DNA of 57,957 nucleotides from Pyrinomonadaceae bacterium. Lineage in GTDB: Bacteria > Acidobacteriota > Blastocatellia > Pyrinomonadales > Pyrinomonadaceae. Each line of letters opens with the position of its first letter. The stretch's first letter is position 1. The notes beneath the pieces were generated by a model. The model had not been told where the DNA came from, searched no databases, and worked only from the letters and a program-made list of their open reading frames with translations. The position numbers and the translations under genes are program-made. This document shows, piece after piece, positions 3,339-56,924 of the stretch. The stretch lies in assembly GCA_035942915.1 (NCBI GenBank), contig DASZCR010000271.1, positions 1-57,957 on the forward strand, written 5' to 3'.

Positions 3339-3412
3339 GTGATAAGTGATGGGTGAGAGGTGAGAGGATAAAACCTGTCTTCTCTTATCACCCATCACTT
3401 ATCACCTATCAC
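3339..3412. repeat. heptamer-periodic palindromic element, GTGATRG type (4 + core + 4, 74 nt)
   Basis: GTGATAA GTGATGG GTGAGAG GTGAGAG - GATAAAACCTGTCTTCTC - TTATCAC CCATCAC TTATCAC CTATCAC. It lies between the livG stop (3334) and the livF ATG (3420). Confidence 0.9.
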
Positions 3413-3419
3413 GGTTTTT

Positions 3420-4124
3420 ATGCTGACACTGGAAAACATCTCTGTTAATTACGGTGCGATTAATGCGCTCAAGGGCGTCTCGATGCATGTCGAGCGCGGT
3501 GAGGTGATTACGCTCATCGGGGCAAACGGCGCGGGGAAGACGACGACGCTCAGAACCATTACGGGACTCTTAAGCCCGCGCGAGGGGCGCGTGCTCTACG
3601 AGGGCGAGGAGATTAGCGGCACGCCGACGCATAAGCTCGTCGCGCGCGGCATCGCCATGTCGCCCGAAGGGCGCGGCGTCTTCGCCAACCTGACCGTCAG
3701 AGAGAACTTGCAGATGGGCGCGTATCTGCAAAAGGACAAGCGCAAGCAGGCAGAGGACATGGAGCGCGCCTTCCGCATGTTCCCGCGTCTGAAGGAACGC
3801 GAGACGCAGAAGGCCGGAACGCTCTCCGGCGGCGAACAGCAGATGCTGGCGATGGGACGCGCGCTGATGTCGCGCCCGCGCCTCTTGCTTCTGGATGAAC
3901 CCTCGCTCGGTCTTGCCCCGCTCGTCGTCCACACCATCTTCGAGGCCATCGAGGAGATTCGCAGCGAGGGCACGACCATCCTTCTCGTCGAGCAGAACGC
4001 ACACGCCGCGCTCGGCCACTCCGACCGCGCCTACGTCCTTGAGACCGGCCGCATCGTCATGGAAGGCCCCTCGAAGGAACTCGCCGCCGACCCGCGCATC
4101 AAGGAAGCCTACCTCGGCGAATAA
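3420..4124 (+). CDS. livF: branched-chain amino acid ABC transporter ATP-binding protein LivF
   Basis: Walker A GANGAGKTT, signature LSGGEQQMLA, Walker B LLLLDEPSLGLAP, C-terminal IKEAYLG. Confidence 0.9.
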   Translation: MLTLENISVNYGAINALKGVSMHVERGEVITLIGANGAGKTTTLRTITGLLSPREGRVLYEGEEISGTPTHKLVARGIAMSPEGRGVFANLTVRENLQMGAYLQKDKRKQAEDMERAFRMFPRLKERETQKAGTLSGGEQQMLAMGRALMSRPRLLLLDEPSLGLAPLVVHTIFEAIEEIRSEGTTILLVEQNAHAALGHSDRAYVLETGRIVMEGPSKELAADPRIKEAYLGE

Positions 4125-4165
4125 CCGCCCCATCGGCAGACGACAAACTTGCTCAGCCGTTGTCG

Positions 4166-5557
4166 CTAACCGGCGAGCGAGGCGCGCGCGGCGGCGAGCG
4201 CCTCTGCGACGCGTTCCGGCGCAGTCCCTCCCGTCTGTCGCTTGGTCGCCAACGTCTGCTCAAGAGAGAGCGCATCGTAGACATCTTCCTCGACGAGAGG
4301 CGAAAACTCACGCAGCTCTTCGAGGTCTAGTTCCTGCAACTCCAAACCCTTCTCGATAGCCTTTAAGACCATCCGCCCGACCGTCTCGTGCGCCTCGCGG
4401 AAGGGCAGGCCGCGCCGCGCCAGATAGTCTGCCATCTCGGTCGCGTTCATGTAGCCGAGCGTCGCCGCATCGTACGCACGCACCTCGCGCACACGCAGGT
4501 TGCCGAGCACTGTGGCCGTCACTTCCAGAGACGCGCGCACCGTGTCGGCCGCGTCGAAGACCGCTTCCTTGTCCTCCTGCAAGTCCTTGTTGTAGGTGAG
4601 GGGCAGCCCCTTGACGAGCGCCAGCAACGCCGTCAGGTGACCGAAGACGCGCCCCGCCTTGCCGCGCACCAACTCCAACGCGTCCGGGTTCTTCTTCTGC
4701 GGCATGATGCTCGACCCGGTCGCCACCGCATCGCCCAACTCGATGAAGCCGAACTCGTTCGTCGCATACAGGATGATGTCTTCGGCGAGACGCGACAGGT
4801 GCGCCATGATGAGACTCGCCGCCGCCACGAACTCAACGCAGAAGTCGCGGTCGCTGACGGCGTCCAGACTGTTGCGCGTCACGCCGTCGAAGCCGAGCGC
4901 GTGCGCGACCGCCTCGCGGTCGATGGCGTAACTCGTCCCGGCGAGCGCGGCCGAACCGAGCGGCGAGACGTTCGTGCGACGGCGCACGTCTCCGAGCCGT
5001 TCGCGGTCGCGCGCGAACATCTCGACGTAGGCGAGACACCAATGCGCAAAGAGGATGGGCTGCGCGCGTTGAAGATGCGTGTAGCCGGGAAGGACTGCAT
5101 CGGCGTGAGCCTCCGCCAACTCGACGAGGGCGGCCTGCGTCGCACGCACGCGCTCCGAGAGACCTTCAATCTCATCGCGCAGCCACAGGCGCAGCGCCGT
5201 CGCCACCTGGTCGTTGCGACTGCGCCCCGCGTGCAACTTGCGCCCCGCATCGCCGACCAACTCGACAAGCCGCGCCTCGACGAACGAATGTACGTCCTCT
5301 GCGCTCTCGTCTTCGAGATAGCTCGCGCCTCCGGCCTCTGCACGTTCGAGCAGCGTCCGCAAGGCGGCGTTGATGCGCGCGGCTTCCTCCTGCGTGAGCA
5401 CGCCCGCCCTGCGTAAGCCCTCGCAGTGCGCGAGGCTCCCCCGCACGTCGGCCTCGAAGAGACGACGGTCGAAGCCGAACGAGCGATTGAAACGCGCGAA
5501 GCCCGCATCAGTCGCACCCCGAAATCTTCCGCCCCACAGATTTTTCGCTTCACTCAT
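4166..5557 (-). CDS. argH: argininosuccinate lyase
   Basis: 463 aa. WGGRF near the N-terminus and the fumarate-lyase signature GSSIMPQKKNPD. Divergent from argR. Confidence 0.95.
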   Translation of the reverse strand: MSEAKNLWGGRFRGATDAGFARFNRSFGFDRRLFEADVRGSLAHCEGLRRAGVLTQEEAARINAALRTLLERAEAGGASYLEDESAEDVHSFVEARLVELVGDAGRKLHAGRSRNDQVATALRLWLRDEIEGLSERVRATQAALVELAEAHADAVLPGYTHLQRAQPILFAHWCLAYVEMFARDRERLGDVRRRTNVSPLGSAALAGTSYAIDREAVAHALGFDGVTRNSLDAVSDRDFCVEFVAAASLIMAHLSRLAEDIILYATNEFGFIELGDAVATGSSIMPQKKNPDALELVRGKAGRVFGHLTALLALVKGLPLTYNKDLQEDKEAVFDAADTVRASLEVTATVLGNLRVREVRAYDAATLGYMNATEMADYLARRGLPFREAHETVGRMVLKAIEKGLELQELDLEELREFSPLVEEDVYDALSLEQTLATKRQTGGTAPERVAEALAAARASLAG

Positions 5558-5604
5558 AAGCCGGTTTTTATCACCTTCCGCGCCGACGCTCGACGAAAAC
5601 TTTG

Positions 5605-5668
5605 CTTTGATGCATCTTGCGTGCTATTTTATGCATCTATGCACAAGTTATGCAAATTTCGCGCATAA
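5605..5668. promoter_or_regulatory. candidate ArgR operators (ARG-box-like palindromes) in the argH/argR divergent region
   Basis: AT-rich stretch with repeated TGCAT/ATGCA half-sites: TGCAT(5611)...ATGCATCTATGCAC(5631-5644)...TTATGCAaatttcGCGCATAA(5648-5668). The palindromic geometry is roughly that of 18-bp ARG boxes. No exact consensus match is claimed. Confidence 0.4.
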
Positions 5669-5679
5669 CAGGAAGAGCG

Positions 5680-6096: not shown

Positions 6097-6113
6097 TTTT
6101 GAAAGGCTGAATT

Positions 6114-7297
<1,184 letters not shown>

Positions 7298-7313
<16 letters not shown>

Positions 7314-7429
7314 TGGGTGATGGGTGATAGGAAAAGAGTGATGGGTGATGGGTGATGGGTGATAGGAGAAAGGCTGTTTCTTATCACCTATCACCTATCA
7401 CCCATCACTTCCTTCCTATCACTTATCAC
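7298..7429. repeat. heptamer-periodic palindromic element, GTGATRG type, nested/composite
   Basis: Four outer G-units, GAAAAGA, four inner G-units, core GAGAAAGGCTGTTTCT, four inner C-units, TTCCTTC, two outer C-units. Everything stays in a 7-nt register. Confidence 0.9.
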
Positions 7430-7447
7430 TGATTTAGGGAGGCGGCG

Positions 7448-8503
7448 ATGGTAACGAGGGTTGAGGTTGACAAGGTCGGGTCGGCGGCGTCGGGGCTTGG
7501 ATTGGAGAGGTCTCTGACGGTGACGCGCGAGGCGCGGAAGGTGCGCGCGGGCGACGTGCTGGTGGTGCGTGCGCTGACCGACAGCGCGACCTACAACCAG
7601 TTGGAGTTGCCTTCGGGGCGTCTGGCGAAGATTAATCCGGGCGATGTGCTCGTCGGCGTGCTCGGCAGTCGCCGCGCGCTCAAAGGTTTCGTCGGAGACG
7701 TGCCGGAGGCGGTCGCCGAGGGCGACGAATTGCACCTCCTGAACATGGGCGGCGTCGTCGGCCGTTGCACGGGTCATCATTCGAGTCTGAGCGATGCCAT
7801 CCGCGTGCGCGTCCTCGGACTTGCGTGCGATGCGCGGGGCGAGCGCGTGCACAACATCTCGGACGGCGCGTTGCCGCTGCGCGAGAGGCTGGGCGCGAGC
7901 GCGCCGCTCGTCGTCGTCGCGGGAGCGTGCATGAACAGCGGCAAGACGTTTGCGGCGACGGAGATAGTCAGGCAGGCGACGCGGCACGGTTTGCGCGTGG
8001 CGGCCGGAAAACTGTCGGGCGTCGCCTGCCTGCGCGACACCTTGAACATGGCCGACCATGGCGCGGTGGCGACCGCGAGCTTTCTCGATTGCGGTCTGCC
8101 TTCGACGGTCGGCGTCGGCGACCTTGCGCCCGTCGCGAAGGCCGTCGTCGCGCGTCTCAACGAGTGCGCGCCCGACCTCGTCGTTATCGAACTGGGGGAC
8201 GGCATCCTCGGCGGCTACTCTGTGGATTCCGTGTTTGACGATGCGGAGTTGCGCGCGGCGACGAGCGCGATTGTCTTCTGCGCGTCGGATTACGTCGGCG
8301 CGTGGGGAGGCATCGAGTTGTTTCGTCGCAGAGGCTTGCGCGTGGACGTGGTGGCCGGGTCTGTCACCGACTCGCAGATGGGCGAGGACTACATCGAACG
8401 CGAGTTCGACGTTCCGGCCGGAAATGCCAAACGCAACGGTGCGCGGCTCTTCGAGTTGATTCGCCCGAAGATTGTCGGCAGCAAACTCGAAGTCGCCGCA
8501 TAG
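7448..8503 (+). CDS. uncharacterised P-loop (Walker A-like) protein embedded in the arg operon
   Basis: 351-aa ORF with protein-like composition, unlike the R-rich antisense ORF 7391-8551. It has VVVAGACMNSGKT, later LVVIELGDG (a Walker-B-like strand plus acidic residue), and an N-terminal ~150 aa that is beta-rich with no motif I recognise. It lies between argG and argC on the same strand, and its stop is 22 nt before the argC ATG. Confidence 0.7.
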   Translation: MVTRVEVDKVGSAASGLGLERSLTVTREARKVRAGDVLVVRALTDSATYNQLELPSGRLAKINPGDVLVGVLGSRRALKGFVGDVPEAVAEGDELHLLNMGGVVGRCTGHHSSLSDAIRVRVLGLACDARGERVHNISDGALPLRERLGASAPLVVVAGACMNSGKTFAATEIVRQATRHGLRVAAGKLSGVACLRDTLNMADHGAVATASFLDCGLPSTVGVGDLAPVAKAVVARLNECAPDLVVIELGDGILGGYSVDSVFDDAELRAATSAIVFCASDYVGAWGGIELFRRRGLRVDVVAGSVTDSQMGEDYIEREFDVPAGNAKRNGARLFELIRPKIVGSKLEVAA

Positions 8504-8525
8504 AACGTTGAAGCAGGGTTTTGAA

Positions 8526-10774: not shown

Positions 10775-10814
10775 GGGCGCAGAAGCCGTCTTCTGTCCCG
10801 CACATGATGCCGAT

Positions 10815-12724: not shown

Positions 12725-12787
12725 ACCCGCTGCCAGATTTCTCAAACTTCTCTTTGCGCCTCCGCCATCTTTGCGCGAAACTTCTGC

Positions 12788-14784: not shown

Positions 14785-16710
<1,926 letters not shown>

Positions 16711-16719: not shown

Positions 16720-16813
16720 GGTCAAAGGTCAAAGACCAAAGGCAAAAGTTGAGAGGCTACGTCCTCCTGACTTTTGCCTTTTTACTTTTGCCTTCTTTAG
16801 ATTACTTTTGACC
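16720..16813. repeat. heptamer-periodic palindromic element, GGTCAAA word
   Basis: GGTCAAA GGTCAAA GACCAAA GGCAAAA - loop - TTTTGCC TTTTTAC TTTTGCC TTCTTTA GATTAC TTTTGAC. It fills the ftsH-folP gap and ends 1 nt before the folP GTG. Confidence 0.85.
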
Positions 16814-16814
16814 T

Positions 16815-17678
16815 GTGCAACAACTCGTCTGGAAAACGGGGCGACGGACGCTCACGCTCGGCGCGCGCACGCTCGTCATGGGCGTCCTCAACGTGACGCC
16901 CGACAGCTTCAGCGACGGCGGCCGTTTCTTCGACGCGGCACGCGCCGTCGAGCGCGCCGAGCGAATGGTTGAAGAGGGCGCGGACTTGCTCGACGTAGGC
17001 GGAGAATCGACGCGGCCGGGCGGCGCAGCCGTCGAGGTTGAAGAAGAGCTGCGCCGCGTCGTGCCGGTCATCAAAGCCATCGCGCGGACGGTCTCCGTGC
17101 CCGTCTCAATCGACACGACGAAGGCGCGCGTCGCACGCGCCGCGCTCGACGCGGGGGCGGAGATTGTTAACGACATCTCGGCCTTACGGTTTGAGCCGCA
17201 TCTGGCGGACGAGGCGGCACGCACGGGCGCGGGACTCGTCCTCATGCACTCGCGCGGGACGGCCGATGAGTTGCACACTCGGCCGCCGTCGGCCAACATC
17301 TGGAAAGAGATGGCCGAGAGCCTGCATGGCAGCATCTCGGAAGCGAGGCGGCGCGGTGTGGCGCGCGAGTGCATCGCGCTCGACCCCGGCATCGGCTTCG
17401 GCAAGACGCAGGAGCAGAACGTCGAAATAATCGCGCGCCTCACGCGCTTTGCAGATGCCTTGCCGGGCTATCCGGTTCTCATCGGCACATCGCGCAAATC
17501 TTTCATCGGCCGCCTGCTGGGCGGCGCTGCCGTCGATGAGCGTCTGCATGGCACGATGGCGACCATCACGGCCGCCGTCCTCGCAGGCGCGCACATCGTC
17601 CGCGTCCACGACGTGCGCCCCGCCGTCGAGACCGTCCGCGTCGCAGATGCGCTGAAAGCAGTGATAGGTGATAGGTGA
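16815..17678 (+). CDS. folP: dihydropteroate synthase
   Basis: GVLNVTPDSFSDGG and DVGGESTRPG pterin-binding motifs. GTG start. The last five codons and the TGA stop lie in the repeat at 17661-17763. Confidence 0.9.
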   Translation: MQQLVWKTGRRTLTLGARTLVMGVLNVTPDSFSDGGRFFDAARAVERAERMVEEGADLLDVGGESTRPGGAAVEVEEELRRVVPVIKAIARTVSVPVSIDTTKARVARAALDAGAEIVNDISALRFEPHLADEAARTGAGLVLMHSRGTADELHTRPPSANIWKEMAESLHGSISEARRRGVARECIALDPGIGFGKTQEQNVEIIARLTRFADALPGYPVLIGTSRKSFIGRLLGGAAVDERLHGTMATITAAVLAGAHIVRVHDVRPAVETVRVADALKAVIGDR

Positions 17679-17763
17679 TGGGTGATAAGTGATGGGTGAT
17701 AGGAAGAAAACAGGATTTCTCCTATCACCTATCACTTATCACCTATCACCATTCTCTTATCAC
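17661..17763. repeat. heptamer-periodic palindromic element, GTGATRG type
   Basis: Six G-units, core GAAGAAAACAGGATTTCTC, four C-units, CATTCTC, one C-unit. Confidence 0.9.
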
Positions 17764-21040: not shown

Positions 21041-21111
21041 GTCATGGGTGATGGGTGATGGGTGATAAGAGAAAAGCTGTTTCCCGTCAGCCTTCACCTC
21101 TCAGCCATCAA
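21041..21111. repeat. decayed GTGATRG-type element (4 + core + 4) overlapping the ybeY 5' end
   Basis: GTCATGG GTGATGG GTGATGG GTGATAA - GAGAAAAGCTGTTTCCC (core, overlapping the first C-unit by 2 nt) - CCGTCAG CCTTCAC CTCTCAG CCATCAA. The right arm is degenerate. Confidence 0.7.
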
Positions 21112-21547: not shown

Positions 21548-21657
21548 GTGATAAGAGATAAGTGATAGGTGATAGGTAATAGGTGATAAGACAAAGACAG
21601 GTTTTATCCTATCACCTATCACCTATCACCCATCACCTATCACTCATCACCTATCAC
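21548..21657. repeat. heptamer-periodic palindromic element, GTGATRG type
   Basis: Six G-units (GTGATAA GAGATAA GTGATAG GTGATAG GTAATAG GTGATAA), core GACAAAGACAGGTTTTATC, seven C-units. It lies between the ybeY stop (21543) and the corC-like ATG (21668). Confidence 0.9.
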
Positions 21658-24252: not shown

Positions 24253-24311
24253 AGAGGAAGGGACGGCCACGAAGCGAACGCGCAAGCGTCGCACGGTCGC
24301 AGGGAGAACAC

Positions 24312-24785
24312 ATGGCGAAGAAAATCACGGACGAACAGCCGCGCGTCTATTTCGATTGCTCGAAGTGTCCGGCCTTCTGCTGTTCGGTCTACGAGCGCGT
24401 CCAGACGAGCGACCGCGACATCACGCGTCTGGCAAAACACTTCGGCGTCTCTTTTGACACGGCGCGGCGGCGCTACACGAAGATGTACGAAGGCGAGCGC
24501 GTGCTGCGGCGCGTCAAGGACGAAATCTTCGAAGAGACCTGCATGTTCCTCAATCAGGAGACGCGCGGCTGCGGCATCTATCATGCGCGCCCGGCCGTCT
24601 GTCGCGAGTACCCCGACCGCGTGCGTTGCGCCTACTACGACCTGCTACAGTTCGAGCGCCGACAACAGGACGACGAATCGGTCATCCCCCTCGTCCAAAT
24701 CACCTTCCGACAGGTGAAGAAGGCGGAAGTCTCGGACGAACACGGCAGCGAAAAGATTTGGGAATGGAAACCGGAAAAGCGTTGA
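24312..24785 (+). CDS. YkgJ-family cysteine-cluster protein (CxxCxxCC)
   Basis: FDCSKCPAFCC plus a downstream GCGIYHARPAVCREYP. The stop TGA (24783-24785) lies in the first unit of the repeat. Confidence 0.75.
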   Translation: MAKKITDEQPRVYFDCSKCPAFCCSVYERVQTSDRDITRLAKHFGVSFDTARRRYTKMYEGERVLRRVKDEIFEETCMFLNQETRGCGIYHARPAVCREYPDRVRCAYYDLLQFERRQQDDESVIPLVQITFRQVKKAEVSDEHGSEKIWEWKPEKR

Positions 24786-24905
24786 TAGTTGATAAGAAGA
24801 AAGTGATGGGTGATAGGTGATAGGTGATAGGAGAAGAACAAGTTTTCTCTTATCACCTATCACCTATCACCTATCACTCTTGTTCTATCACCTATCACCT
24901 ATCAC
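24782..24905. repeat. heptamer-periodic palindromic element, GTGATRG type, nested/composite
   Basis: TTGATAG TTGATAA, GAAGAAA, four G-units, core GAGAAGAACAAGTTTTCTC, four C-units, TCTTGTT, three C-units. Confidence 0.9.
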
Positions 24906-25893: not shown

Positions 25894-26263
25894 AACGGGG
25901 GAACGAATCTCCTCTGCGTCCGAGTCTCAAATTGCTTACTGGGGACTTCTTGGGTGAGACTGTCAGGCCGCTTGTCTCGCGACCGTAAAACCATCCTACA
26001 GACCAATTTACAGTCGTGACAAGAGGCAATGTGACTGTTTTGTGACGAGCCACTTGCGGAAGGCGACAGAATGCACGGAAAGGGTTCGGGTAGATAGCGT
26101 TAAATGGTTCAGATTGAACGAATTGTGGGAAGATAATACGCTTTTCGGAGTGCTCTCAGCAGATATCTAGGCACATCCGGCAATCGGCGCGTGCCTCCGG
26201 GACGTGGATATTTCTGCGCGCGGCGTGATAGCATGCGCGGCCAAAGAGGGAGTCGAACGAGTG

Positions 26264-27721
26264 ATGCTATTCATCGAAAGTAGAGTTTGCGAACAGGGCG
26301 TTGACGCCGCGTCGCGCACCTTTGTCCTCGACAAATTGCAGGAGCAGGGGCTTACGCCTCTGATTCGCACGACGCGTCTGGCCTGCTACGAGCAGGCTTT
26401 GCTCGCCCCTGAGCGCACGGCCGAGATGGAGCGACAGATGGCCGCGTTGACCGACGCAGGGGCAGACGCGCCATACGTGCGCGGCGACCTTTTCTGCTTT
26501 GAAGACCACGCGCTCTATCTCATCTTCGGCGGCGCAGAGGACGGCGTGCGCGCCTCGACCGTCCGCGCGGGCATCATCCACCACGCCGAGACGCGCGAGC
26601 CGACGGAAAAACTCGACGCCTTCTGTCGCGCTCTCTCGGATGTCTTCCTGCTCGCCGTCCACGCAGACGCCGCCAACTCCTCGACTGCCGGGAGCGCGGC
26701 TCCCATCAACTTCGTCTGGCGCAGGCGGGAGGAGGATGTGCCTGCCAGTTTCGCGCGCTTCTCGGCTGAGGCAGGGGCGGGCGAAACGCGTGAGGGCGTC
26801 GAAGCGTCGGAGCGGCTGCGCGCCGTAGAGATTCTGGAAGACGCGGAGGCGCGCAGATTCCTGCGTCGTCTGAGCGACGCGCAGACCGAAGGGCGAACGG
26901 CCGACATGTTGGTCGGAGCGACCGGGACGGGCGAACACGCCTCGGAAGACTTCATCGGTCGTCTGTCGGGCGCGGGACTCGTCAAGCGCGAACTGCTCGT
27001 TAGCTGCCGCAAGGCGGGGCGCTCGCTCTTCCGTCTGCCGTCGGCCGATGCGCTGGCCGTGCTGACGGCGAGCGGCGCGGTCTGTAGCGAATGCGGCACG
27101 GCTCTGGCCGACGAGCGGGCAGAAGAGTTGGTGACGCCGACGGCGACCGCGACGGGGATGCTCAAGGATGGCGCGTGGCTCGTCAGCCGGATGCGTTCGT
27201 CGCTCGTCGAGTTGGGTGTGCCGGAGCGCGCCGTCGCCGTGCGTCCTGCGGGTGGCGAGACGGAGGCGCAACTGATGGCGCACGTCTGCGGCGAGCCTTT
27301 CCTCTTTATCCTGCGCGACGGCGACGTGTCGCTCGCGCAGGCGCGACGCGCGCTCGACTTGGAGGCCGAAACGGAAGCCTCTCATCTGGTCGTCGTCGCG
27401 ACGGGTAAGATTCAGGACGAGGCGCGTGCGCGTCTGCGCGAGCATGCGCGGCGGCGTGCGCGTGCGGGCGGCGGCGGTGGCGTCGAGATGATTCTGGTCG
27501 AGGGCGTCGAGGTGGCGGCTACGGAACTGCGGCAGGCGCTCGAACGCGTCTCGCAGAACGCGCTTTCGGCCGAACTCTACGAACTCGATGCGAGCCTCGG
27601 CCTCAGCGCAGGTCATCTCATCGCCACGCGTTTCCGACTCGTCCAACCGCGCACGACCGGACTCAAAGACCTCGCCGCCTCTGCCGCCGGAGCACTCGCC
27701 GGGAGCCTCCGCGAAATATAG
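26264..27721 (+). CDS. hypothetical protein, no recognisable family
   Basis: High GC3 in this frame, whereas the antisense ORF is R-rich. GGGAG lies 8 nt before GTG 26261/ATG 26264; the track start is 26204. There is a C-x28-CxxC pattern (VSCRKAG...VCSECG) mid-protein. A 22-bp hairpin follows. Confidence 0.65.
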   Translation: MLFIESRVCEQGVDAASRTFVLDKLQEQGLTPLIRTTRLACYEQALLAPERTAEMERQMAALTDAGADAPYVRGDLFCFEDHALYLIFGGAEDGVRASTVRAGIIHHAETREPTEKLDAFCRALSDVFLLAVHADAANSSTAGSAAPINFVWRRREEDVPASFARFSAEAGAGETREGVEASERLRAVEILEDAEARRFLRRLSDAQTEGRTADMLVGATGTGEHASEDFIGRLSGAGLVKRELLVSCRKAGRSLFRLPSADALAVLTASGAVCSECGTALADERAEELVTPTATATGMLKDGAWLVSRMRSSLVELGVPERAVAVRPAGGETEAQLMAHVCGEPFLFILRDGDVSLAQARRALDLEAETEASHLVVVATGKIQDEARARLREHARRRARAGGGGGVEMILVEGVEVAATELRQALERVSQNALSAELYELDASLGLSAGHLIATRFRLVQPRTTGLKDLAASAAGALAGSLREI

Positions 27722-28892: not shown

Positions 28893-30260
28893 ATGAAAAA
28901 CCGCTCGTTGTTCCTACTCGTTTCGACGCTCGTCGTCTTTGCGCCGTCCGTCTATGCGCAGACGCAGGAATCGGCCGCTCCGCAGACCACTTACACGCGC
29001 CCGCGCGTCATCAACCCGACGCAGACCACAGGAGGCCAGCAGCCGCAGACGCCGCCGACGCAAACGGCCGCGCCGCAAGCCACGCCCGCACCCGCGACAC
29101 ACTCGACGGGCGGCGCGTCTGTGCAGACGAACGGCACAACGCCTGCTCCGTCTGCGACGAGCGCGCCGGTCTCCGTGCCGACGCTCGGTGCGGCCACGCC
29201 CACGCTCTTTCCGCCCGTGCCTTTGCAGCCCGCGCAGCCGCTCCCGCTCTCGAAGTTTCGCGCGCGCTCTCAGGAAGCGCAGCGCCTCTTGAAGTCGCGC
29301 GTTTCGATGACGGCCTCGACGCCCTCGACCGCCTTCGTCACCGTCGCCGCGCTCGACCATGACACGTCGCAGATTCACACCATCACGCTGCTCAAGGAGA
29401 ACTTCCTCCGGCGCGGCGCGGAGATGTGGCTGACGACATCGGCCGGGCTTCCCGTGCGGATGCAGGTCGTGCGCTCGAACTTCGTCAACACGGCGCTCGT
29501 CATCTCGGACGCGAAGGGACGGCAGTTGACGCCGCTCGTCGTCCAGTATCCGATTGAGAAGTTCGGACACTACCGCGAGATGGCCTACTACACGTCGGCG
29601 CACCCGTCTCTGATGACGCCCGAACTCGTCAAGAGCGGTCAGGCTTACGTCCGCACGATGCTCGACCTCGCGGCCAAGCGCCTGCACGACAAGGGCAAGG
29701 TTATCTCTCCGAAGATAGTCGATATCGCCGAGCGACTCTGCATCGTCGAGCACGTCGACCACGACCGCTTCCGACGCGAAGACCGCGCCGCGCTCTACAA
29801 CGAGGTGTACGCGCTCTTCGCCTTGAACGAGTTGGACACCTATCGCTACTCGGTCAGTTCGGCCGGGGCGGGCGGCATGGTGCAGATGATTCCTTCGACC
29901 TACCAGATGCTCAGGCGTCTGCACCCGACCGTCGGCCTCAACCCGGACTTCGTCGCAGGGATGCGCAATCATGGCAACGCGCTCGAAGCGATGCTCCTGC
30001 ACATGCAGGACAACTGGAACACGTTGCTGTTGAGTCCTGAAGCCAACGAGGCGCTCGCCAGCGGCATTGCGACGCAGCCCGAACTGGTCGCCGCCGGTTA
30101 CAACTCGAACTCGGCGCGGCTGCCCGGCTACATCCGTCGCGGCGGCGCGTCTTGGCGCGTGCTCATCCCGCGCGAGACGCAGATGTACCTGCAAATCTAT
30201 AAGTCGGTCGAAAGCCTCGTCCAGTTCAAGTCGCGCACCGAGGGCGCAACCAAAAACTAA
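28893..30260 (+). CDS. secreted protein with a Pro/Thr/Gln-rich linker and an SLT-like lytic transglycosylase motif
   Basis: Signal peptide (ends ...PSVYAQ) and a low-complexity PTQ region. NELDTYRYSVSSAGAGGMVQMIPSTY aligns position by position with the SLT pattern ES-x7-S-xx-GA-x-GLMQ. Confidence 0.65.
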   Translation: MKNRSLFLLVSTLVVFAPSVYAQTQESAAPQTTYTRPRVINPTQTTGGQQPQTPPTQTAAPQATPAPATHSTGGASVQTNGTTPAPSATSAPVSVPTLGAATPTLFPPVPLQPAQPLPLSKFRARSQEAQRLLKSRVSMTASTPSTAFVTVAALDHDTSQIHTITLLKENFLRRGAEMWLTTSAGLPVRMQVVRSNFVNTALVISDAKGRQLTPLVVQYPIEKFGHYREMAYYTSAHPSLMTPELVKSGQAYVRTMLDLAAKRLHDKGKVISPKIVDIAERLCIVEHVDHDRFRREDRAALYNEVYALFALNELDTYRYSVSSAGAGGMVQMIPSTYQMLRRLHPTVGLNPDFVAGMRNHGNALEAMLLHMQDNWNTLLLSPEANEALASGIATQPELVAAGYNSNSARLPGYIRRGGASWRVLIPRETQMYLQIYKSVESLVQFKSRTEGATKN

Positions 30261-39533: not shown

Positions 39534-39544
39534 AAGGATGAAGA

Positions 39545-39694
39545 ATGGTAAATGGTAAATGGTGAATAGTAAATGGTGATGTGTGGTGATAAGTGATAGA
39601 TGATAAGTGATGGGCGATAGGAGAAGGACTGTTCTTTCCTATCACCTATCACCCATCACCTATCACTCCGCACTTATCACTCATCACTTATCAC
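39545..39694. repeat. hybrid heptamer element: ATGGTAA-word block fused to a GTGATRG-type palindrome
   Basis: ATGGTAA ATGGTAA ATGGTGA ATAGTAA ATGGTGA, then GTGATAA GTGATAG ATGATAA GTGATGG GCGATAG, core GAGAAGGACTGTTCTTTC, four C-units, TCCGCAC, three C-units. It lies between the divergent cyclase and mqnA genes. Confidence 0.9.
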
Positions 39695-44063: not shown

Positions 44064-45038
44064 TTATTCGCGTGTGGGGAGGGATTGGCGCAGGAGTGTG
44101 TTGAATTTCTCGGAGTGTTCTTCTTGAGGCATCATGCGGCAGCGGTCGAAGAGCTCAAGGCGTGCGCGTGGGTTGAGTTGGAGCAGGGCAGCGGCGTGTG
44201 TGGGCGGATTGGTCTCGTCATGGCGTCCCCAGACGAGTGTGACGTTCTGCGTGAGGCGCGCAAAGGGTTCGCGGATATCCGTGTTGAGATAGCCGGAGAG
44301 GAAGGCCGTGATGGCGTGCTGCGCGCCGGGCAGATGGCTCACAGAGTAGTAGTGTGCGACGAGGCGCGGGGTGGCGAAGCGACGGTCGTAGAAGAGCTGT
44401 TTGCGCGCGTAGTCGCGTATGCTGCGCTCGCTCGTCATGGCGTTGTAGAAGGAAGTGCCGAGGACGGGCGAGTTGAGCAGGCCGTAGAAGGCCGCGCCCG
44501 GCAGGTCTGGCCGCGCACTGAGGTTGCCGCCGACGCCGGTCGGCGAGATGAGCACGAGCGAGTCGACAGATTCGGGACGCTCATCGGCCGCGCGGACGGC
44601 GAAGGCGGCGCCGAGCGAAGAGGCGACGATGGACGTGCGACGACCGGCCACCTCCTCGATAAAGTCCATGATGAGTTCGGCGTAGAGGTCTGCCGAGTAG
44701 GGCGCGCCCGCAGGCTTGTCCGAATAGCCGAAGCCGAGCAGGTCAAGGGCGTAGACGCGGAAGTCGCGCGAGAGCGGCTCGAAGTTGCGCCGCCACATGA
44801 AGGAGCGCGCGCCCGCGCCGATGCCGTGAACAAAGAGCACAGGGGGAGCTTGCGTGTGACCGGCGCGACGGTAGAAGACGCGCCCGTGCTTCCACTCGAA
44901 GGTCGCGCCCTCGCCGCCGAGCGCGCCCGTCTCCGGCTCAGGAACGCCGCGCGCAATCTCCGCATTGACGGCCGCCAGCGCCGCCACGCCCGCGCCCCCC
45001 GCCACAAGCCCCTTCCAAAATTTGCGCACAAGACCCAT
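44064..45038 (-). CDS. alpha/beta hydrolase
   Basis: 324 aa. PPVLFVHGIGAGARSF and the nucleophile-elbow-like IVASSLGAAFA. Confidence 0.8.
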   Translation of the reverse strand: MGLVRKFWKGLVAGGAGVAALAAVNAEIARGVPEPETGALGGEGATFEWKHGRVFYRRAGHTQAPPVLFVHGIGAGARSFMWRRNFEPLSRDFRVYALDLLGFGYSDKPAGAPYSADLYAELIMDFIEEVAGRRTSIVASSLGAAFAVRAADERPESVDSLVLISPTGVGGNLSARPDLPGAAFYGLLNSPVLGTSFYNAMTSERSIRDYARKQLFYDRRFATPRLVAHYYSVSHLPGAQHAITAFLSGYLNTDIREPFARLTQNVTLVWGRHDETNPPTHAAALLQLNPRARLELFDRCRMMPQEEHSEKFNTLLRQSLPTRE

Positions 45039-45045
45039 AGAACAG

Positions 45046-45153
45046 GTGATAGGTGATGAGTGATAGGTGATAAGTAAGGAAGTGATAGGTGATTGGTGAT
45101 GGGTGATAGGAAGAAAGCTGTTTTCTTATCACCTATCACCTATCACCTATCAC
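45046..45153. repeat. heptamer-periodic palindromic element, GTGATRG type, asymmetric
   Basis: Four outer G-units, GTAAGGAA, four inner G-units, core GAAGAAAGCTGTTTTC, four C-units. It ends 5 nt before the rne stop codon. Confidence 0.9.
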
Positions 45154-45158: not shown

Positions 45159-48287
<3,129 letters not shown>

Positions 48288-49034: not shown

Positions 49035-49114
49035 GTCTAAAGTCTAAAGTCCGGAGTCTAAAGTCCGAGACCGCAGTCTTGGCGACTCCCGACTGTGGAC
49101 TTCAGACTTCAGGC
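49035..49114. repeat. heptamer-periodic palindromic element, GTCTAAA word
   Basis: GTCTAAA GTCTAAA GTCCGGA GTCTAAA GTCCGAG - loop - TCCCGAC TGTGGAC TTCAGAC TTCAGGC. It lies immediately downstream of the rodA stop (49122-49124). Confidence 0.8.
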
Positions 49115-49121
49115 TGAGAGT

Positions 49122-50243: not shown

Positions 50244-50261
50244 AAAATCTCAGGCTGACAG

Positions 50262-50343
50262 GTGATAAGTGATAGGTGATAAGTGATAGGTGATAAGAGA
50301 AGAACCCGTTTTCTCCTATCACCCATTACCCATCACCCATCAC
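50262..50343. repeat. heptamer-periodic palindromic element, GTGATRG type
   Basis: Five G-units, core GAGAAGAACCCGTTTTCTC, four C-units (CTATCAC CCATTAC CCATCAC CCATCAC). It contains the mrdA stop codon (50340-50342). Confidence 0.9.
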
Positions 50344-52232: not shown

Positions 52233-52252
52233 AAGTCACAGAGGTTCGGTCT

Positions 52253-52798
52253 TTAATACTTTCGTCCCCTCGACGTGCGGCGTGCGACGCGCCGCCGGAA
52301 CTTGAACTGTCGGCGTTGGCGCGCCGTCTCGCTGAAGAAGGTGTCGAGCACGTAGATGATGATAGTTCCCGTAATGGTCGTCCCGATAATCGTCCCGGCG
52401 ACCGTTTCGACGAAGGGCGCGACGGGCGGCTGGCGCAGCAGTCTGTGCAGCAGGACGTAAACGCACGAATCGAAAGCGGCCGCACTTGCTAAGACGGGAA
52501 TTCTGAGCAGCGGGTTGTCAATCCTGATGCGCGTCACCATGAAGGCGATGAGATAGGCTGTCAGGGTTTTGGAGAAGCCGCCCGCGCCGAGCAGCCCGCC
52601 GCCCAGAGCGTCGGTCGCCAGCCCCGCCACCGTCCCGATAATGACGGCTTGGAGCGGGTCGCGCCGGAGCGCGAAATAGGTCACGACGATGAGCGTGAGG
52701 TCGGCGTATTTGAGCCACTCGCCGGCCGTCGGGATTGAGCGCAGAGACGACTGCAACAGCACCGCCAGCGCCACGCACACGGCAATCTTCAGTCTCAT
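52253..52798 (-). CDS. mreD: rod shape-determining protein MreD
   Basis: 181-aa polytopic ORF after mreC. Confidence 0.8.
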   Translation of the reverse strand: MRLKIAVCVALAVLLQSSLRSIPTAGEWLKYADLTLIVVTYFALRRDPLQAVIIGTVAGLATDALGGGLLGAGGFSKTLTAYLIAFMVTRIRIDNPLLRIPVLASAAAFDSCVYVLLHRLLRQPPVAPFVETVAGTIIGTTITGTIIIYVLDTFFSETARQRRQFKFRRRVARRTSRGRKY

Positions 52799-52805
52799 AA
52801 AAACG

Positions 52806-52915
52806 GTGATAGGTGATAGGCCATCAGTGATAGGTGATGAGTGACAGGTGATAAGAGAAGAACTGTTTTTGTCCCATCACCTATCACTCATCACTTATCA
52901 CTGATGGCCTATCAC
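52806..52915. repeat. heptamer-periodic palindromic element, GTGATRG type with complementary interruptions
   Basis: GTGATAG x2, GCCATCA, four G-units, core GAGAAGAACTGTTTTTGTC, four C-units, TGATGGC (exact complement of GCCATCA), CTATCAC. It contains the mreC stop (52912-52914). Confidence 0.9.
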
Positions 52916-53805
52916 TTTTTGCCCTTGTCCACGTTCGGCAGCGCGCGGTCGGGCGCGTTGCGCTGCGGGGGACGGTACTGCAAGACCGCCACCTCCGAGA
53001 GCGAATCGAGCCGCGCGCTCGGCTTGACGCGGATGACGTGCGGCGAGGTGGCCGAGCCTTGCTGCACTTCCACCACCGTCCCGACGTTTAAACCCGGCGG
53101 ATAGATGCCGTCCTGTCCCGTCGTCACCACGTAGTCGCCGACGTTGACGGTCTCCAACCCGGACACGTAGCGCATCTCCAGCAGCCCGTTCTTGCCGTAG
53201 CCGCGCACCGAGCCGAGTGCGTTCGACGCGCCGAGTTGGCCGACGACCGCGCCGGCCGCCGCCCGCTCGTCCGTGACGAGCATGACCTGCGCGGTGACGG
53301 GGCTGACGGCGACGACGCGACCGACGATGCCGTCGCGCGTGGCGACCGGCATGTTCAACTCGACGCCCGACGAAGAACCCCGGTTGATAATGACCGTGTT
53401 GAACCAGATGGACGGGTCGCGCGCGATGACGCGCGCCGGGACGACGCCGTACTCCGAATCCTGCTTCATGTCGAGCAGGCTCTTGAGCCGTTCATTCTCG
53501 TCGCGTGCGGCCTTCGCATCCCGTAACTCCGACTCGGCCGCCGCGAGCCGCTCGCGCAGTTGCTCGTTTTCGACCTGCGCGCGCCGGAGGTTGGCGAGGT
53601 TCTGGAAGAAGCCGATGCTCGCGCCGCCCGCGCCCGTCGTTGCGCGCTGCACGGGCGAGACGGCGGCCTGCGCCCAGACGCGCAGCACGCGCTGCTTGGT
53701 CACGGCGTCGCGGGCGTCCCATGTCATCAACCCGAAGTTGACAACGAGCAGGCCGAGCAGCCAGACCGGCGCGCGCTGCCTTAGCTCTTTCTGCGTCCGA
53801 AGCAT
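52912..53805 (-). CDS. mreC: rod shape-determining protein MreC
   Basis: 297 aa: N-terminal TM segment, a coiled-coil (ENEQLRERLAAAESELRD) and beta-rich C-terminal domains. Confidence 0.9.
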   Translation of the reverse strand: MLRTQKELRQRAPVWLLGLLVVNFGLMTWDARDAVTKQRVLRVWAQAAVSPVQRATTGAGGASIGFFQNLANLRRAQVENEQLRERLAAAESELRDAKAARDENERLKSLLDMKQDSEYGVVPARVIARDPSIWFNTVIINRGSSSGVELNMPVATRDGIVGRVVAVSPVTAQVMLVTDERAAAGAVVGQLGASNALGSVRGYGKNGLLEMRYVSGLETVNVGDYVVTTGQDGIYPPGLNVGTVVEVQQGSATSPHVIRVKPSARLDSLSEVAVLQYRPPQRNAPDRALPNVDKGKK

Positions 53806-53820
53806 CTTCGATGAGAATCA

Positions 53821-53894
53821 GTGATAAGTAATGGGTGATAGGTGATAAGAGAAAACCTGTCTTGTCCTATCACCTATCACCCATCACCTATCAC
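53821..53894. repeat. heptamer-periodic palindromic element, GTGATRG type (4 + core + 4, 74 nt)
   Basis: GTGATAA GTAATGG GTGATAG GTGATAA - GAGAAAACCTGTCTTGTC - CTATCAC CTATCAC CCATCAC CTATCAC. It lies between the mreB stop and the mreC start. Confidence 0.9.
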
Positions 53895-53900
53895 TACTCT

Positions 53901-54947
53901 TTACGTCCCGCTCGTCAGCGTGTTGTCCCACTTGACGCGCTTGAGGAGGTTGAAGTCCGAGAGCATCTTGCCCGCGCCCAAGACGACCGAGGAGAGTGGG
54001 TCTTCGGCGACCGAGACGGGCAGCCCCGTCTCGATGGAGAGACGCCGGTCGAGGTTCTTCAGCAGCGCCCCGCCGCCCGTCATCACGATGCCGCGCTCGA
54101 CGATGTCGGCCGACAGTTCCGGCGGCGTCCGCTCAAGCGCCACACGCACGGCGTTCACGATGGTCGAGACGGAATCGGCCAGCGCCTCTCGAACTTCCTC
54201 GTCCGTGATGGTGATGGTCTTCGGGATGCCTTCGATGAGGTTGCGGCCGCGCACGTCCATCGAAAGCGGCTCGTCGAGCGGGAAGGCGCTCCCCAGTTCA
54301 ATCTTGATGGCCTCGGCCGTGCGCTCGCCGATAAGGAGGTTGTACTTGCGCTTGATGTACTGCGTGATAGCTTCGTCCATCTCGTTTCCGGCGACGCGCA
54401 CGGCGCGCGAGTAGACGATGCCGGACAAACTGATGACGGCGATATCGGTCGTGCCGCCGCCGATGTCGACAATCATGTTGCCGTGCGGCTCGGTGATGGG
54501 GAGGCCCGCGCCGATGGCCGCGCACATCGCCTCCTCCACCAGATAGACCTCTGAGGCTTTAGCGCGATAGGCCGAGTCTTCGACGGCGCGGCGCTCGACC
54601 TGCGTAATCTCGGAGGGGATGCCGATGACGACGCGCGGGCTGACCCATGTCTTGCCGTTGTGCGCCTTGCGGATGAAGTGCTGAAGCATCTTCTCCGTCA
54701 CCTCGAAGTTGGCAATCACGCCGTCTTTCATCGGGCGGATGGCGACGATGTTGCCGGGCGTGCGCCCCAACATCTCTTTGGCCTCTTTGCCGACGGCCTC
54801 CGGCGTGTTGGTGACCTTGTTGATGGCGACGATGGAAGGTTCACTGACGACGATGCCGCGCCCCTTGGCGAAGACGAGCGTGTTGGCCGTGCCGAGGTCA
54901 ATGGCAAGGTCGCTAGAGAACAGGCTAAAAAAGGATTTAAATGCCAT
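53901..54947 (-). CDS. mreB: rod shape-determining actin homologue MreB
   Basis: [13 protein letters not shown] phosphate-1 motif, DIGGGTTD. Start placed at ATG 54947 (MAFKSFF). Confidence 0.95.
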
Positions 54948-55252
54948 TCGGTTTCCTGTCACTACCTCTTAACTGAAAAACGCGCCGGAATCTGAACAAA
55001 CGTGAGCGCCATCCTGCGCGCGAGCGAACCCACAAAGATACACCGAAGCGGCGCTTCTTTGCTAACCGTCAGACACATGTCGCGGAGGCTTCAGGATATC
55101 AGCGAGTGAGACTCGCTCCTGTTGTTGTCGTGCTTGTAACCGCTCGGTAGGGGGGTGTCGGCTCTGCTGCTACTGAACAACTCGCTCAATGCTTTACAGC
55201 ATGCGACCGAAAATGTCTATAACTTTTTGAGCCGGGAAACGGAAAATTTTCG

Positions 55253-56797
55253 TCACGCGCCCGCCGCAGGCTCCGGTGCGAAGCGGATGCAGTTTTTGCG
55301 CGCCGCTTTGGCCTCGTACATGGCCGCGTCGGCGCAGGCGACGAGTTGCTGCGGCGACTGCGCGTGTTCGGGGAAGGTGGCGATGCCGAAGGAGGCCGTC
55401 AGCGACAGGCGCAGGCGTCGGCCGCCGGTGAAAGGGTGGTTGGCGATGCGCGAGCGGACGCGCTCGGCGACGCGCGCGGCCATCTCGATGCCTGTTTCGG
55501 GAAGGATGACGACGAACTCGTCGCCGCCGTAACGCGCCACCACGTCCGTATCGCGCACACATGAGAGGATGACTCCGGCCATCTCCATCAGGACGTGCGA
55601 GCCGACGAGGTGCCCGTGACGGTCGTTGACCGCCTTGAAATCGTCGAGGTCAAGAAAGAGCGCGCTGACGGATGAGCCGTAGCGGCGCGCGCGCTTGATT
55701 TCGCTGATGAGGAACTGTCTGAGGTAACGCGCGTTGTGCAGCTTCGTCAGGTCGTCTGTCTGCGAGAGCCGTTCGGCCTCGGCGATGCGGACGGCGTTCG
55801 AGAGAGCCGCCGCGAGCGGCAGCGCGAGCGCCGAGAGAAAGGAGGCGTCGGCACGCGAGAAGGCGCGCACCCTTTCGCCTTCGCGGACGGCTTCGAGGAC
55901 GCCGATGACGCGTTCACTGCTGAGTAGCGGAATGGCGATGACGCGGCGCGCGCCCTCGGTCTTACGCAACGTCTCGGCCGACGCGGCGGCGCGTCTCGCC
56001 GCGCACGACTCCGCGCCGGAGAGCGCCAGCGCGTCGCCCATCAGCGCGCGTCGCCAGTCTCCTTCCGGCAGAGCGCGCTCGCTCGCCGTCAGCCCGCGCA
56101 CGGCGAGCGGTTCGAAAGCGAGCTCTTCGGGCTGTGCGCCGCCCTCGCCGACGAGGTAAATAGTCCAACGGTCTGCTTTGACGAGCGAGGCGAGTCCGGC
56201 CAGCGCGGCCGAGGCGGCGCTCTTCTGGTCGGCCGCGAAGTGCAAGGCCGCGACCGTCTCGAAGGCCGCGCGCAGACGCGTCACGCTCAAGTTGTCGGGC
56301 AACAGCAGGCTCGAAGGCGCAATCATCGGCTCGTCGTCCGGGGGCAACTCCTCGCGTCGCTCGCGCGGGCTAAGCTGGCCGGAATTGCCGCGTGATTCGA
56401 GTTCATGCAGCAGCGCGCGCAGTTGCGCCGGGTCGTCTGCGACGGCGCGGAAGCCGAGCCGTTCAAGGGCGGCCGCGTCGAGACGCCGCGCCATCGTGCG
56501 CGCGACATCAGGCGACGGGGGGCGACGGCAGGCGACGAGCGGCGCATCCGGCCACGTCTCTGCGGCGCGACGCGCGACGGCATGAACCTCTGCCACGTCA
56601 GCCCCGGCCGCGACTTCGTAGAGCACTGCGAGCGGCATCTGCGACACATCGGCAGCCGCCCGGCCGACGCGTCCGCGACCCGCCACGTCGCCGAAAGCCT
56701 TAACCGTCGTCGCGCGCACACCGGCCTCGTCGAGCGCCTCCAACAACGCCTCCGCCGGATGCTCGTGTTCGCTCCTGAGAAGGATGACGGGTTTCAT
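55253..56797 (-). CDS. GGDEF diguanylate cyclase with a receiver-like N-terminus and a GAF-like region
   Basis: LDLDDFKAVNDRHGH, RYGGDEFVVILP. The N-terminal MKPVILLRSEHEH... resembles a receiver, but I cannot confirm the phospho-acceptor. Confidence 0.85.
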   Translation of the reverse strand: MKPVILLRSEHEHPAEALLEALDEAGVRATTVKAFGDVAGRGRVGRAAADVSQMPLAVLYEVAAGADVAEVHAVARRAAETWPDAPLVACRRPPSPDVARTMARRLDAAALERLGFRAVADDPAQLRALLHELESRGNSGQLSPRERREELPPDDEPMIAPSSLLLPDNLSVTRLRAAFETVAALHFAADQKSAASAALAGLASLVKADRWTIYLVGEGGAQPEELAFEPLAVRGLTASERALPEGDWRRALMGDALALSGAESCAARRAAASAETLRKTEGARRVIAIPLLSSERVIGVLEAVREGERVRAFSRADASFLSALALPLAAALSNAVRIAEAERLSQTDDLTKLHNARYLRQFLISEIKRARRYGSSVSALFLDLDDFKAVNDRHGHLVGSHVLMEMAGVILSCVRDTDVVARYGGDEFVVILPETGIEMAARVAERVRSRIANHPFTGGRRLRLSLTASFGIATFPEHAQSPQQLVACADAAMYEAKAARKNCIRFAPEPAAGA

Positions 56798-56805
56798 AAA
56801 GACAG

Positions 56806-56924
56806 GTGATAGGTGATGAGTGATAGGTGATAAGAAAAACAGCAGTCAGTTGTCAGTCGTCGGTTAAGGATGATGAGAGGCGCGCTGTTTTCCGTCTTAT
56901 CACCTATCACCCATCACCTATCAG
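56806..56924. repeat. GTGATRG-type element with a ~42-nt insertion at the apex
   Basis: Four G-units, GAAAAACAG | CAGTCAGTTGTCAGTCGTCGGTTAAGGATGATGAGAGGCGCG | CTGTTTTCCGTC, four C-units. The insert carries xxGTCAG heptamers and a GGATGATGAGAGG piece. Confidence 0.85.

Follow-up and report, generated by a model that had tools for sequence, protein, structure and literature searches.

The stretch of DNA analysed here (positions 1 to 57,957 of contig DASZCR010000271.1, assembly GCA_035942915.1, a Pyrinomonadaceae bacterium of the Acidobacteriota; its whole length is called the window below) carries between its genes palindromes of tandem heptamers, with GTGATRR units on the left arm, a short tip and YYATCAC units on the right arm. 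The question raised by this locus is what these hairpins are, how they came to lie between so many genes and what maintains them. The elements are discrete modules, which are dispersed and homogenised within the genome, nest in one another, turn over at gene junctions, are anchored at stop codons and show a polarity that is the same on both strands. The reading favoured here, which is given about an even chance of being right, is that they are non-autonomous palindromic repeats at the level of the DNA, comparable to hairpin-forming doublets of repetitive extragenic palindromic sequences (REPINs) or to MITEs (miniature inverted-repeat transposable elements). They would form intercistronic stem-loops and probably behave like repetitive extragenic palindromic sequences (REP) and bacterial interspersed mosaic elements (BIME).

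An inspection of the letters alone, referred to as the sequence-only reading, had listed 12 of these palindromes, and all 12 (E1 to E12 in order along the window) were found at the positions given there. The double unit GTGATRRGTGATRR (at most one mismatch) occurs 89 times in the window, compared to 0.07 expected occurrences (maximum 1) in dinucleotide-preserving shuffles, and both arms of each copy were called as period-7 arrays by Tandem Repeats Finder (TRF). The 25 longest inverted repeats of the window are nearly all heptamer elements, with a 62+62-nt palindrome (52802-52926) at the top, whose extent had been given as 52806-52915. A second extent, 39545-39694, also had to be corrected, as its first 41 nt belong to another heptamer array (ATGGTRA). 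Due to unit variants, the strict search pattern that had been proposed catches just three of the 12 copies. All GTGATRR copies counted are real, but three hairpins composed of other units (1318-1404, 16720-16813 and 49035-49112) had been overlooked. Hairpins are thus present in 15 of the 38 intergenic gaps of at least 50 nt (12 GTGATRR and three with other units) and cover 2.6% of the window, roughly one per 4 kb. The predicted RNA fold energies of the elements range from -29 to -85 kcal/mol (z = -3.4 to -17 in comparison to shuffles), the stems comprise 23-55 bp with 38-53% GC, and the G+C content of the elements is 38-51% in comparison to 62.7% for the window.

The basic module of about 74 nt consists of four GTGATRR units, a self-complementary tip with a purine run and a pyrimidine run, and four complementary units. 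The 74-nt form (four units, 18-nt tip, four units) had been described correctly for 3339-3412 and 53821-53894. The tip is a small palindrome by itself (GARAARAAC, 3-5 nt, GTTYTYTC), and the conserved core that had been claimed was found, in the form GARAARAAC..GTTYTYTC, in 11 of the 12 copies, whereas the copy at 56806-56924 possesses a foreign insert of about 45 nt in its tip. Tip sub-types are common to several copies of the window. The window and related genomes together supplied 133 GTGATRR hairpins, in which 90 left and 95 right arms have an uninterrupted inner run of exactly four units; the counts drop steeply at three and five units. Within the 28-nt arm, unit variants are position-specific: GTGATAA predominates in the innermost unit, and GTGATGA is frequent in the third. 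The stems of 94 modules of the 4+4 type showed 2364 Watson-Crick pairs next to 256 mismatches of the transition type and 12 transversions, and their variable positions are mirrored between the arms above chance (0.719 versus 0.664±0.013). In E2, E3, E6, E7 and E10, one odd heptamer (GAAAAGA, GAAGAAA, GCCATCA etc.) follows after exactly four units and is mirrored on the opposite arm. Such long copies read as one module placed within the tip of a second or, which amounts to the same, as a 35-nt duplication in mirror image. A-rich sequence precedes the elements (5') and T-rich sequence follows them (3'), and these flanks frequently lengthen the palindrome (AAAACAG before and CTGTTTT after the element).

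The family extends far beyond the window. Its spread was scanned with one genome per species and the pattern (GTGATRR)3GARAAR, so that the sample is biased towards GTGATRR matches. At least 107 loci were obtained in at least 32 genomes labelled as Pyrinomonadaceae, Blastocatellaceae or Acidobacteriota, which originate from many independent studies and include complete chromosomes; the genes of the window share 68-81% DNA identity with the matched Acidobacteriota genomes, which places the window in a Pyrinomonadaceae-like acidobacterium. Within a complete chromosome of 5.17 Mb, matches are distributed from 72 kb to 3.59 Mb. Because matches occur in many independent genomes and in complete chromosomes, an assembly artefact is excluded, and the proposal of a genome-scale family was confirmed. 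The only members of other phyla among the matches listed were Desulfoluna (L041, 3319-3367), Chitinophagales and Fluviicola, with three solitary arrays that are not hairpins. These arrays (L041, L062, L104) consist of GTGATAG or GTGATGA units without an inverted partner and are probably unrelated simple repeats. A viral origin was rejected, as no match was found in viral contigs.

GTGATRR is one family within a larger class of heptamer hairpins in Pyrinomonadaceae and related Acidobacteriota. In the window and the matched loci, 7 is by far the commonest period (516 arrays versus at most 70 for any other period), and 367 of 507 heptamer arrays occur in inverted pairs. At least 64 distinct heptamer units form hairpins, typically of the 4+4 type, and three of the units other than GTGATRR are represented in the window. 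In some families, scattered loci and separate genomes share an arm pattern and have unrelated tips; for example, AAGGATG AAGGATG AAGGCGG AAGGATG recurs in L005, L010 and L011. The conserved tip is thus a feature of the GTGATRR family and not of the wider class, in which the arms stay and the tips vary. Position and polarity were analysed in a wider sample of 181 elements in 841 kb. The 5' arm contains more G than C in 172 of these elements, in 68 of the 77 elements without GTGATRR units, and in 43 versus 8 distinct units. Because the elements are palindromic, this G-rich 5' arm is seen on both strands. The unit cores GTGA, GTCA, TCAG and AGTC are enriched (z = 4-5 versus shuffled units). At the mreB/mreC and mreC/mreD junctions of L112 and L123, from genomes with 69-71% G+C, the units are GC-rich (GCGCGGG, GCCGGGG), while the 5'-G polarity and arms of 3-4 units are kept.

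Chance overlaps between the window and the matched loci provided orthologous regions, and the comparison of such junctions, which the sequence-only reading had proposed, revealed filled and empty sites as well as differences in unit number. At the site of E6 (24782-24905), a GTGATRR element is present in five genomes (the window and four others), in which the flanking genes are 70-79% identical. These copies differ in unit number, unit variants and tip; in some of them, the left arm has decayed or the tip carries an insertion. At mreC/mreD (E10), GTGATRR occurs in the window, L097 and L107. At mreB/mreC (E11), the hairpin is composed of GTGATAG in the window, AAGTCTC in L097 and GGTCAGA in L107. 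Likewise, the PBP2/rodA junction (E9) carries GTGATGG units in the window and a hairpin of CAGGAGT units in L107, and the site of E12 is occupied by an AGTCAGG hairpin in L097. The mreD/PBP2 junction is filled in L107 and empty in the window, and the gap at 24253-24311 is filled in three relatives and empty in the window. A sample that is independent of the pattern was obtained with mreC (72 metagenome loci with 56-77% amino-acid identity; the metagenome scan gave no closer match). Most of these loci possess heptamer arrays of many different units at both the mreB/mreC and mreC/mreD junctions. Inspection of the nearest loci by eye showed a hairpin at every junction examined, including GCGCGGG and GCCGGGG units that had been missed by the detector. 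A hairpin of this architecture is therefore retained at junctions even in distant genomes, with a sequence that drifts or is exchanged for another.

The copies within one genome resemble each other in unit positions 6 and 7. In the window and in OY969111, CAWBSB and CAZEZJ these positions are AG, GG and AA; in DASVES, JBEVJD, JACMLC, DATFCB and DATHJK only AA and GA occur, and in JAWKHL mostly GG (GTGATGG 64%). Copies at orthologous sites carry the dialect of their own genome. This sharing of dialects among dispersed copies is concerted evolution across loci. Other families are nested in GTGATRR tips in L006, L014, L063, L077 and in E12 of the window. The shared tip sub-types, the fixed module of four units and the genome-specific unit variants bear out the earlier proposal that one family has spread by copying and not by independent slippage.

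As to position, all 12 GTGATRR copies of the window are intergenic or overlap gene ends, as had been stated before, and any such overlap is limited to a stop codon; 14 of the 15 window elements are located behind a co-directional gene. Not one of the 181 elements of the wider sample is intragenic. Elements in co-directional gaps lie a median of 4 nt from the upstream stop codon (78% ≤10 nt), and the downstream start codon follows at a median of 16 nt. In gaps with more room than the element needs, 30 elements adjoin the stop codon, 12 adjoin the start codon and four lie centrally. Of 104 adjacent genes, 42 terminate at the TGA contained in the first, second or third unit. The occupancy is 28% for tandem, 27% for convergent and 22% for apparently divergent gaps, and these proportions are approximate, as gene calls based on the G+C content of third codon positions are crude and inflate the divergent class. 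Downstream genes often start 4-13 nt past the stem, and in the window and the mre loci the start is often preceded by a short T-run and not by a Shine-Dalgarno sequence. In the window, the genes of livF, mreD, a hydrolase, a GGDEF protein and livM start 7-10 nt past the stem without a Shine-Dalgarno sequence, often with a T-run before the ATG (intervals 3412-3422, 52795-52806, 45038-45046, 56797-56806 and 1404-1415). The same T-run and ATG recur at the mre junctions of many relatives.

According to the favoured reading, modules would be copied or gene-converted between loci of one genome and would land preferentially in the tips of existing hairpins just past stop codons. There they might be tolerated because a perfect palindrome would fold out of the mRNA and keep the neighbouring stop and start codons close. 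In the transcript, large intercistronic stem-loops of -35 to -85 kcal/mol are predicted, which would probably function as barriers to 3'-exonucleases and as partial terminators, as REP/BIME do.

Several observations weigh against this reading. The heptamer period, the number of four units, the 5'-G polarity and the copying agent are left unexplained by it. Neither the window nor about 1.4 Mb of matched loci showed arms flanking a gene, as expected for an autonomous element, and a search of the same DNA by tblastn, with an IS200 TnpA query, gave no cognate gene for a REP-associated tyrosine transposase (RAYT) or other Y1 transposase. One Y1-like match was detected in a more distant relative (L128, 10712-11140, minus strand), where an IS200/RAYT-like open reading frame (ORF) of 142 amino acids is located downstream of rodA, flanked by GGGTC...GACCC palindromes and not by heptamer arrays. 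The arms resemble the terminal inverted repeats of MITEs, but no target-site duplication was seen in two comparisons of filled and empty sites, and no autonomous partner element was detected in the loci searched. Furthermore, many unit families look low-copy and site-specific. The units that different genomes have at one site are often related by point changes (AGTGATG, AGTGACG, AGTGAGC, AGTAAGC), which fits concerted evolution in situ as well as replacement. Some composites, such as E10, contain units outside the older frame that are not explained by simple insertion into the tip. Finally, the mre junctions are occupied almost without exception, even in distant genomes, which might just as well reflect selection of the structure by the host.

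It is possible, if rather improbable, that such selection accounts for the elements as a whole. They would then be RNA structures, i.e. attenuators or terminators, stabilisers against 3'-exonucleases, RNase III sites or devices for stop-start coupling, and the heptamers would be a by-product. The anchoring at stop codons agrees with this, and so do the hairpins kept at mreB/mreC and mreC/mreD in almost all relatives despite replaced sequences, and the downstream starts close behind the stem with their T-runs and without Shine-Dalgarno sequences. Behind the arm, a run of at least four T is present in about 22% of cases, and an A4 run is present ahead of it in 24%, which is 3-4-fold above the background of 6-7%. 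The lack of an enrichment of canonical terminators would also fit: between 44000 and 57957 of the window, eight terminator-like sites were found, compared to 11.4 expected from shuffles. However, the enriched runs are symmetric rather than directional, and no preference for the sense strand was detected in 120 co-directional gaps, neither in fold energy (the sense fold is the more stable one in 55 elements, the antisense fold in 64) nor in G:U pairs (220 in sense, 255 in antisense). Tandem, convergent and apparently divergent gaps are occupied to a similar extent, and strong terminators within livGF or mreCD would be harmful. Moreover, host selection explains neither the heptamer period, the four units and the 5'-G polarity nor the genome-wide dialects. 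The missing difference between sense and antisense in folding and G:U pairs, together with the polarity on both strands, argues for a reading at the level of the DNA.

Some narrower functions were rejected. Canonical intrinsic terminators do not describe the elements, since T-runs are found in a minority and symmetrically, the stems are not short and GC-rich, and the elements were not called by the terminator scan; no T-run was seen in the flanks outside the full stem. The heptamer AGGTGAT, which spans a unit boundary, is perfectly complementary to the assumed 3' tail of the 16S rRNA (-10.6 kcal/mol), and the 3' arm copies this tail. Mimicry of Shine-Dalgarno or anti-Shine-Dalgarno sequences is nevertheless marginal over the 64 units (9 of 200 shuffles were as low), and AAGTGAT, the commonest variant elsewhere, pairs weakly, so that other dialects lack the property. 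Stop codons in all frames were also discarded as the cause of the purine-rich 5' arm, for which the composition suffices (36 versus 32.5±3.5 in shuffles).

Another explanation starts from the exact 4 x 7 architecture, which is kept regardless of the sequence. A protein that binds DNA or RNA as a multimer, or a recombinase, might read four 7-nt sites per arm, and its specificity would change together with the units. In that case, the elements would serve as functional sites, e.g. in nucleoid organisation or regulation, or ends recognised by a putative transposase. The genome-specific dialects at unit positions 6 and 7, the enriched unit cores GTGA, GTCA and TCAG, and the corresponding arms of four units in Xanthomonas could be understood in this way. 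This explanation is nonetheless unlikely. Dozens of unrelated units occur per genome, and even per site across relatives, which are too many for cognate binders; no candidate protein was found, and a spacing of 7 bp does not match the helical repeat of the DNA.

Purely local microsatellite dynamics, in which a 7-nt seed slips in place and the arms are matched by hairpin-templated strand switching without any transfer between loci, would account for the prevalence of period 7, for the many units seen only once, for related units at one site across genomes and for arms that are sometimes unequal in length. Slippage should not, however, produce a sharp mode at exactly four units in place of a broad length distribution, nor unit variants tied to a position in the 28-nt arm. 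Arm patterns that are identical between scattered loci and between genomes, the tip common to the GTGATRR family, the genome-wide dialects and whole modules nested within others also speak against it, which makes this explanation very unlikely. The formation of G-quadruplexes, as proposed for the heptamers of Xanthomonas and Nostoc, is largely refuted by the unit composition and most improbable. In its favour, the GTGATGG variant, the majority variant in JAWKHL, gives (GGGTGAT)n, whereas the dominant units (GTGATAG in the window, GTGATAA and GTGATGA in five other genomes) lack G3 tracts and many other unit families lack any G runs.

The individual elements of the window are located beside ordinary housekeeping genes. 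In the order livH-livM-livG-livF, the hairpin X1 (1318-1404) lies at the livH/livM junction. It is composed of GGATGAG units with a variant, CGACGCG, that is mirrored on the opposite arm, and its 31-nt arms are 97% complementary. E1 (3339-3412) is a canonical 74-nt module at the livG/livF junction, 4 nt past the livG stop and 7 nt ahead of the livF ATG; its two inner left units are GTGAGAG, and its minimum free energy is -42.7 (z -11.9). E2 (7298-7429), which contains the stop of argG, is a composite with arms of the form UUUU-p-UUUU / UUUU-p-UU, in which a 4-unit module is located within the tip of another; TRF found a super-period of 35 nt with 94% identity. X2 (16720-16813) has GGTCAAA-type units in the same architecture and lies directly past the stop of ftsH, which is followed by folP, E3 and lptE. 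The left arm of E3 (17661-17763) comprises six units and the right arm 4+1, and the TGA stop of folP, a pterin-binding protein, is located within the third unit.

E4 (21041-21111) and E5 (21548-21657) occupy both junctions of phoH-ybeY-corC (ybeZYX). In E4, the left arm and the tip are intact and the right arm is decayed, as had been noted before, and its z value is only -3.4; E5 possesses 6+7 units between the ybeY stop (21543) and the corC start (21668). E6 is a composite (UUUU-p-UU / UUUU-p-UUU) with the upstream TGA stop in its first unit. E7 (39534-39694) is the sole copy in a divergent gap, between a cyclase gene on the minus strand and a menaquinone gene on the plus strand, and consists of the ATGGTRA array (39534-39577) followed by the GTGATRR hairpin (39586-39694). 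The ATGGTRA array is direct, with about 5-6 units and no complementary partner, and adjoins the start codon of the minus-strand cyclase-family gene. E8 (45046-45153), a 4+4 module with an extra outer left arm, is located 5 nt past the stop of the RNase E/G gene and 7 nt ahead of the start of the next gene (minus strand).

Four of the remaining elements lie among the mre, PBP2 and rodA genes, in the order mreB-E11-mreC-E10-mreD-PBP2-E9-rodA-X3. X3 (49035-49112) has GTCTAAA-type units in the same architecture, 10 nt downstream of the rodA stop. E9 (50262-50343) comprises 5+4 units and contains the stop of PBP2. E10, the longest palindrome, is a composite with a GCCATCA/TGATGGC interruption, and E11 (53821-53894) is a canonical 74-nt module. 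E12 (56806-56924) has 4+4 GTGATRR arms, and its foreign tip sequence includes GTCAGTT GTCAGTC GTCGGTT.

Some other features of the window were also observed. A hexamer array (AACACG x 12.5) at 93-167 falls within an incomplete ORF at the left end of the window and may encode a dipeptide repeat. In the N-terminal part of the RNase E/G gene (1059 amino acids), tandem repeats of 9, 18 and 27 nt (CGCGAATCG type) and a 31-nt inverted repeat occur at 46483-46561. The ORFs at 26204-27721, 28893-30260 and 7448-8503 (505, 455 and 351 amino acids) show a good coding signal and no Pfam match. No tRNA genes were found in the window.

With respect to known repeats, Rfam gave no match at the gathering threshold across the whole window, and literature searches, literal sequence strings included, yielded no account of these repeats in Acidobacteria. 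The strict heptamer register on both arms, in contrast, is not as distinctive as had been thought, since the GGGAATC repeats of Xanthomonas share 28-nt arms of four units. These inverted repeats are the closest published analogue (PMC4692102). Most GGGAATC arrays consist of exactly four 7-nt units (28 nt), and each genome contains 70-75 convergent inverted pairs, whose arms are 21-67 nt apart and of which the G-rich arm lies on the 5' side of each strand (Rehm et al. 2015, PLoS One, PMC4692102). About 90% are intergenic, a few nt from the upstream ORF and much nearer to it than to the downstream ORF. They also occur within operons (groES/EL, atpA/G, atpD/C, gltB/D), vary in array length between species and were interpreted as G-quadruplex formers (PMC4692102). 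The elements described here resemble them in the modal four-unit arrays, the convergent pairs with the G-rich arm 5', the intergenic location and the proximity to the upstream ORF. Four of the five defining features of the Xanthomonas repeats are therefore found here, and the fifth, G-tracts in each unit, is not. Furthermore, Xanthomonas possesses one dominant unit and many solitary arrays, whereas nearly all arrays here are hairpins, in dozens of families and with nesting, in another phylum and with other units that are mostly incapable of forming G-quadruplexes.

REP/BIME had been named among the closest known counterparts, which is appropriate for the behaviour but not for the features by which REPs are defined. 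Like REP/BIME and REPINs (PMC3116915, PMC3733652), the elements are abundant, hairpin-forming extragenic palindromes at the 3' ends of genes and inside operons, with genome-specific families, and behave like non-autonomous dispersed DNA into which further insertions occur. Unlike these, they lack the GTAG/CGTC tag, their arms are tandem heptamers in place of an imperfect palindrome of 20-40 nt, and a RAYT gene accompanying them was detected neither in the window nor in about 1.4 Mb of loci. Divergent gaps rarely contain REPs (PMC3116915, PMC3733652). Another heptamer, TAACTGA, forms intergenic arrays of 2-6 copies in Beggiatoaceae, cyanobacteria and Bacteroidetes, which adjoin start codons, often in place of the ribosome-binding site, with 169 direct sets and one inverted set (MacGregor 2015, PMC4679880). 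In contrast to these direct repeats upstream of genes, the module described here is inverted, and only the heptamer is shared.

The short tandemly repeated repetitive sequences (STRRs) of cyanobacteria, defined for heterocystous species, are over-represented intergenic tandem heptamers of several families, mainly direct arrays of variable length with nested insertions. Mazel in 1990 and Elhai in 2008 are said to have described these heptamers and small dispersed repeats nested in their arrays. Their description is not known to include an inverted 4+4 module of fixed size that is tied to stop codons. The heptamer and the intergenic location are thus shared, and the taxon (Acidobacteriota) and the inverted 4+4 module differ.

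An excess of heptanucleotide repeats in bacterial genomes has been known since 2007. We know of no mechanism for it, and the only detailed study known to us invoked G-quadruplexes. Tentatively, and with a rather low probability, it might be supposed that a machinery which depends on the architecture and not on the sequence builds, copies or maintains 4 x 7 hairpins, with the G-rich arm 5' and at stop codons, in at least two phyla (Pyrinomonadaceae, Xanthomonas and perhaps the cyanobacterial STRRs), and thereby causes the heptanucleotide excess. Candidates would be a recombinase or transposase that recognises the 4 x 7 arms, or a repeat-adding polymerase acting at the 3' ends of breaks in hairpin tips, which would yield the observed polarity.

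Returning to the reading as dispersed palindromic DNA repeats, the elements represent a real and abundant repeat family that is apparently undescribed for this lineage, with a type of architecture known from Xanthomonas and a mechanism that is unexplained. The units that cannot form G-quadruplexes, together with the dozens of families, the nesting and the dialects, speak for a structural or enzymatic cause and not for G-quadruplexes. As the inverted 4 x 7 architecture is independent of G-quadruplex potential and of any unit sequence, the question of the heptamer excess becomes more tractable. The elements concern a major group of soil bacteria, in which they provide a ready marker for strain typing and a cause of breaks in short-read assemblies. 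Since they are located between the cistrons of essential operons (mreBCD-PBP2-rodA, livHMGF, ybeZYX), they must shape mRNA structure, operon expression and genome assembly in these organisms.

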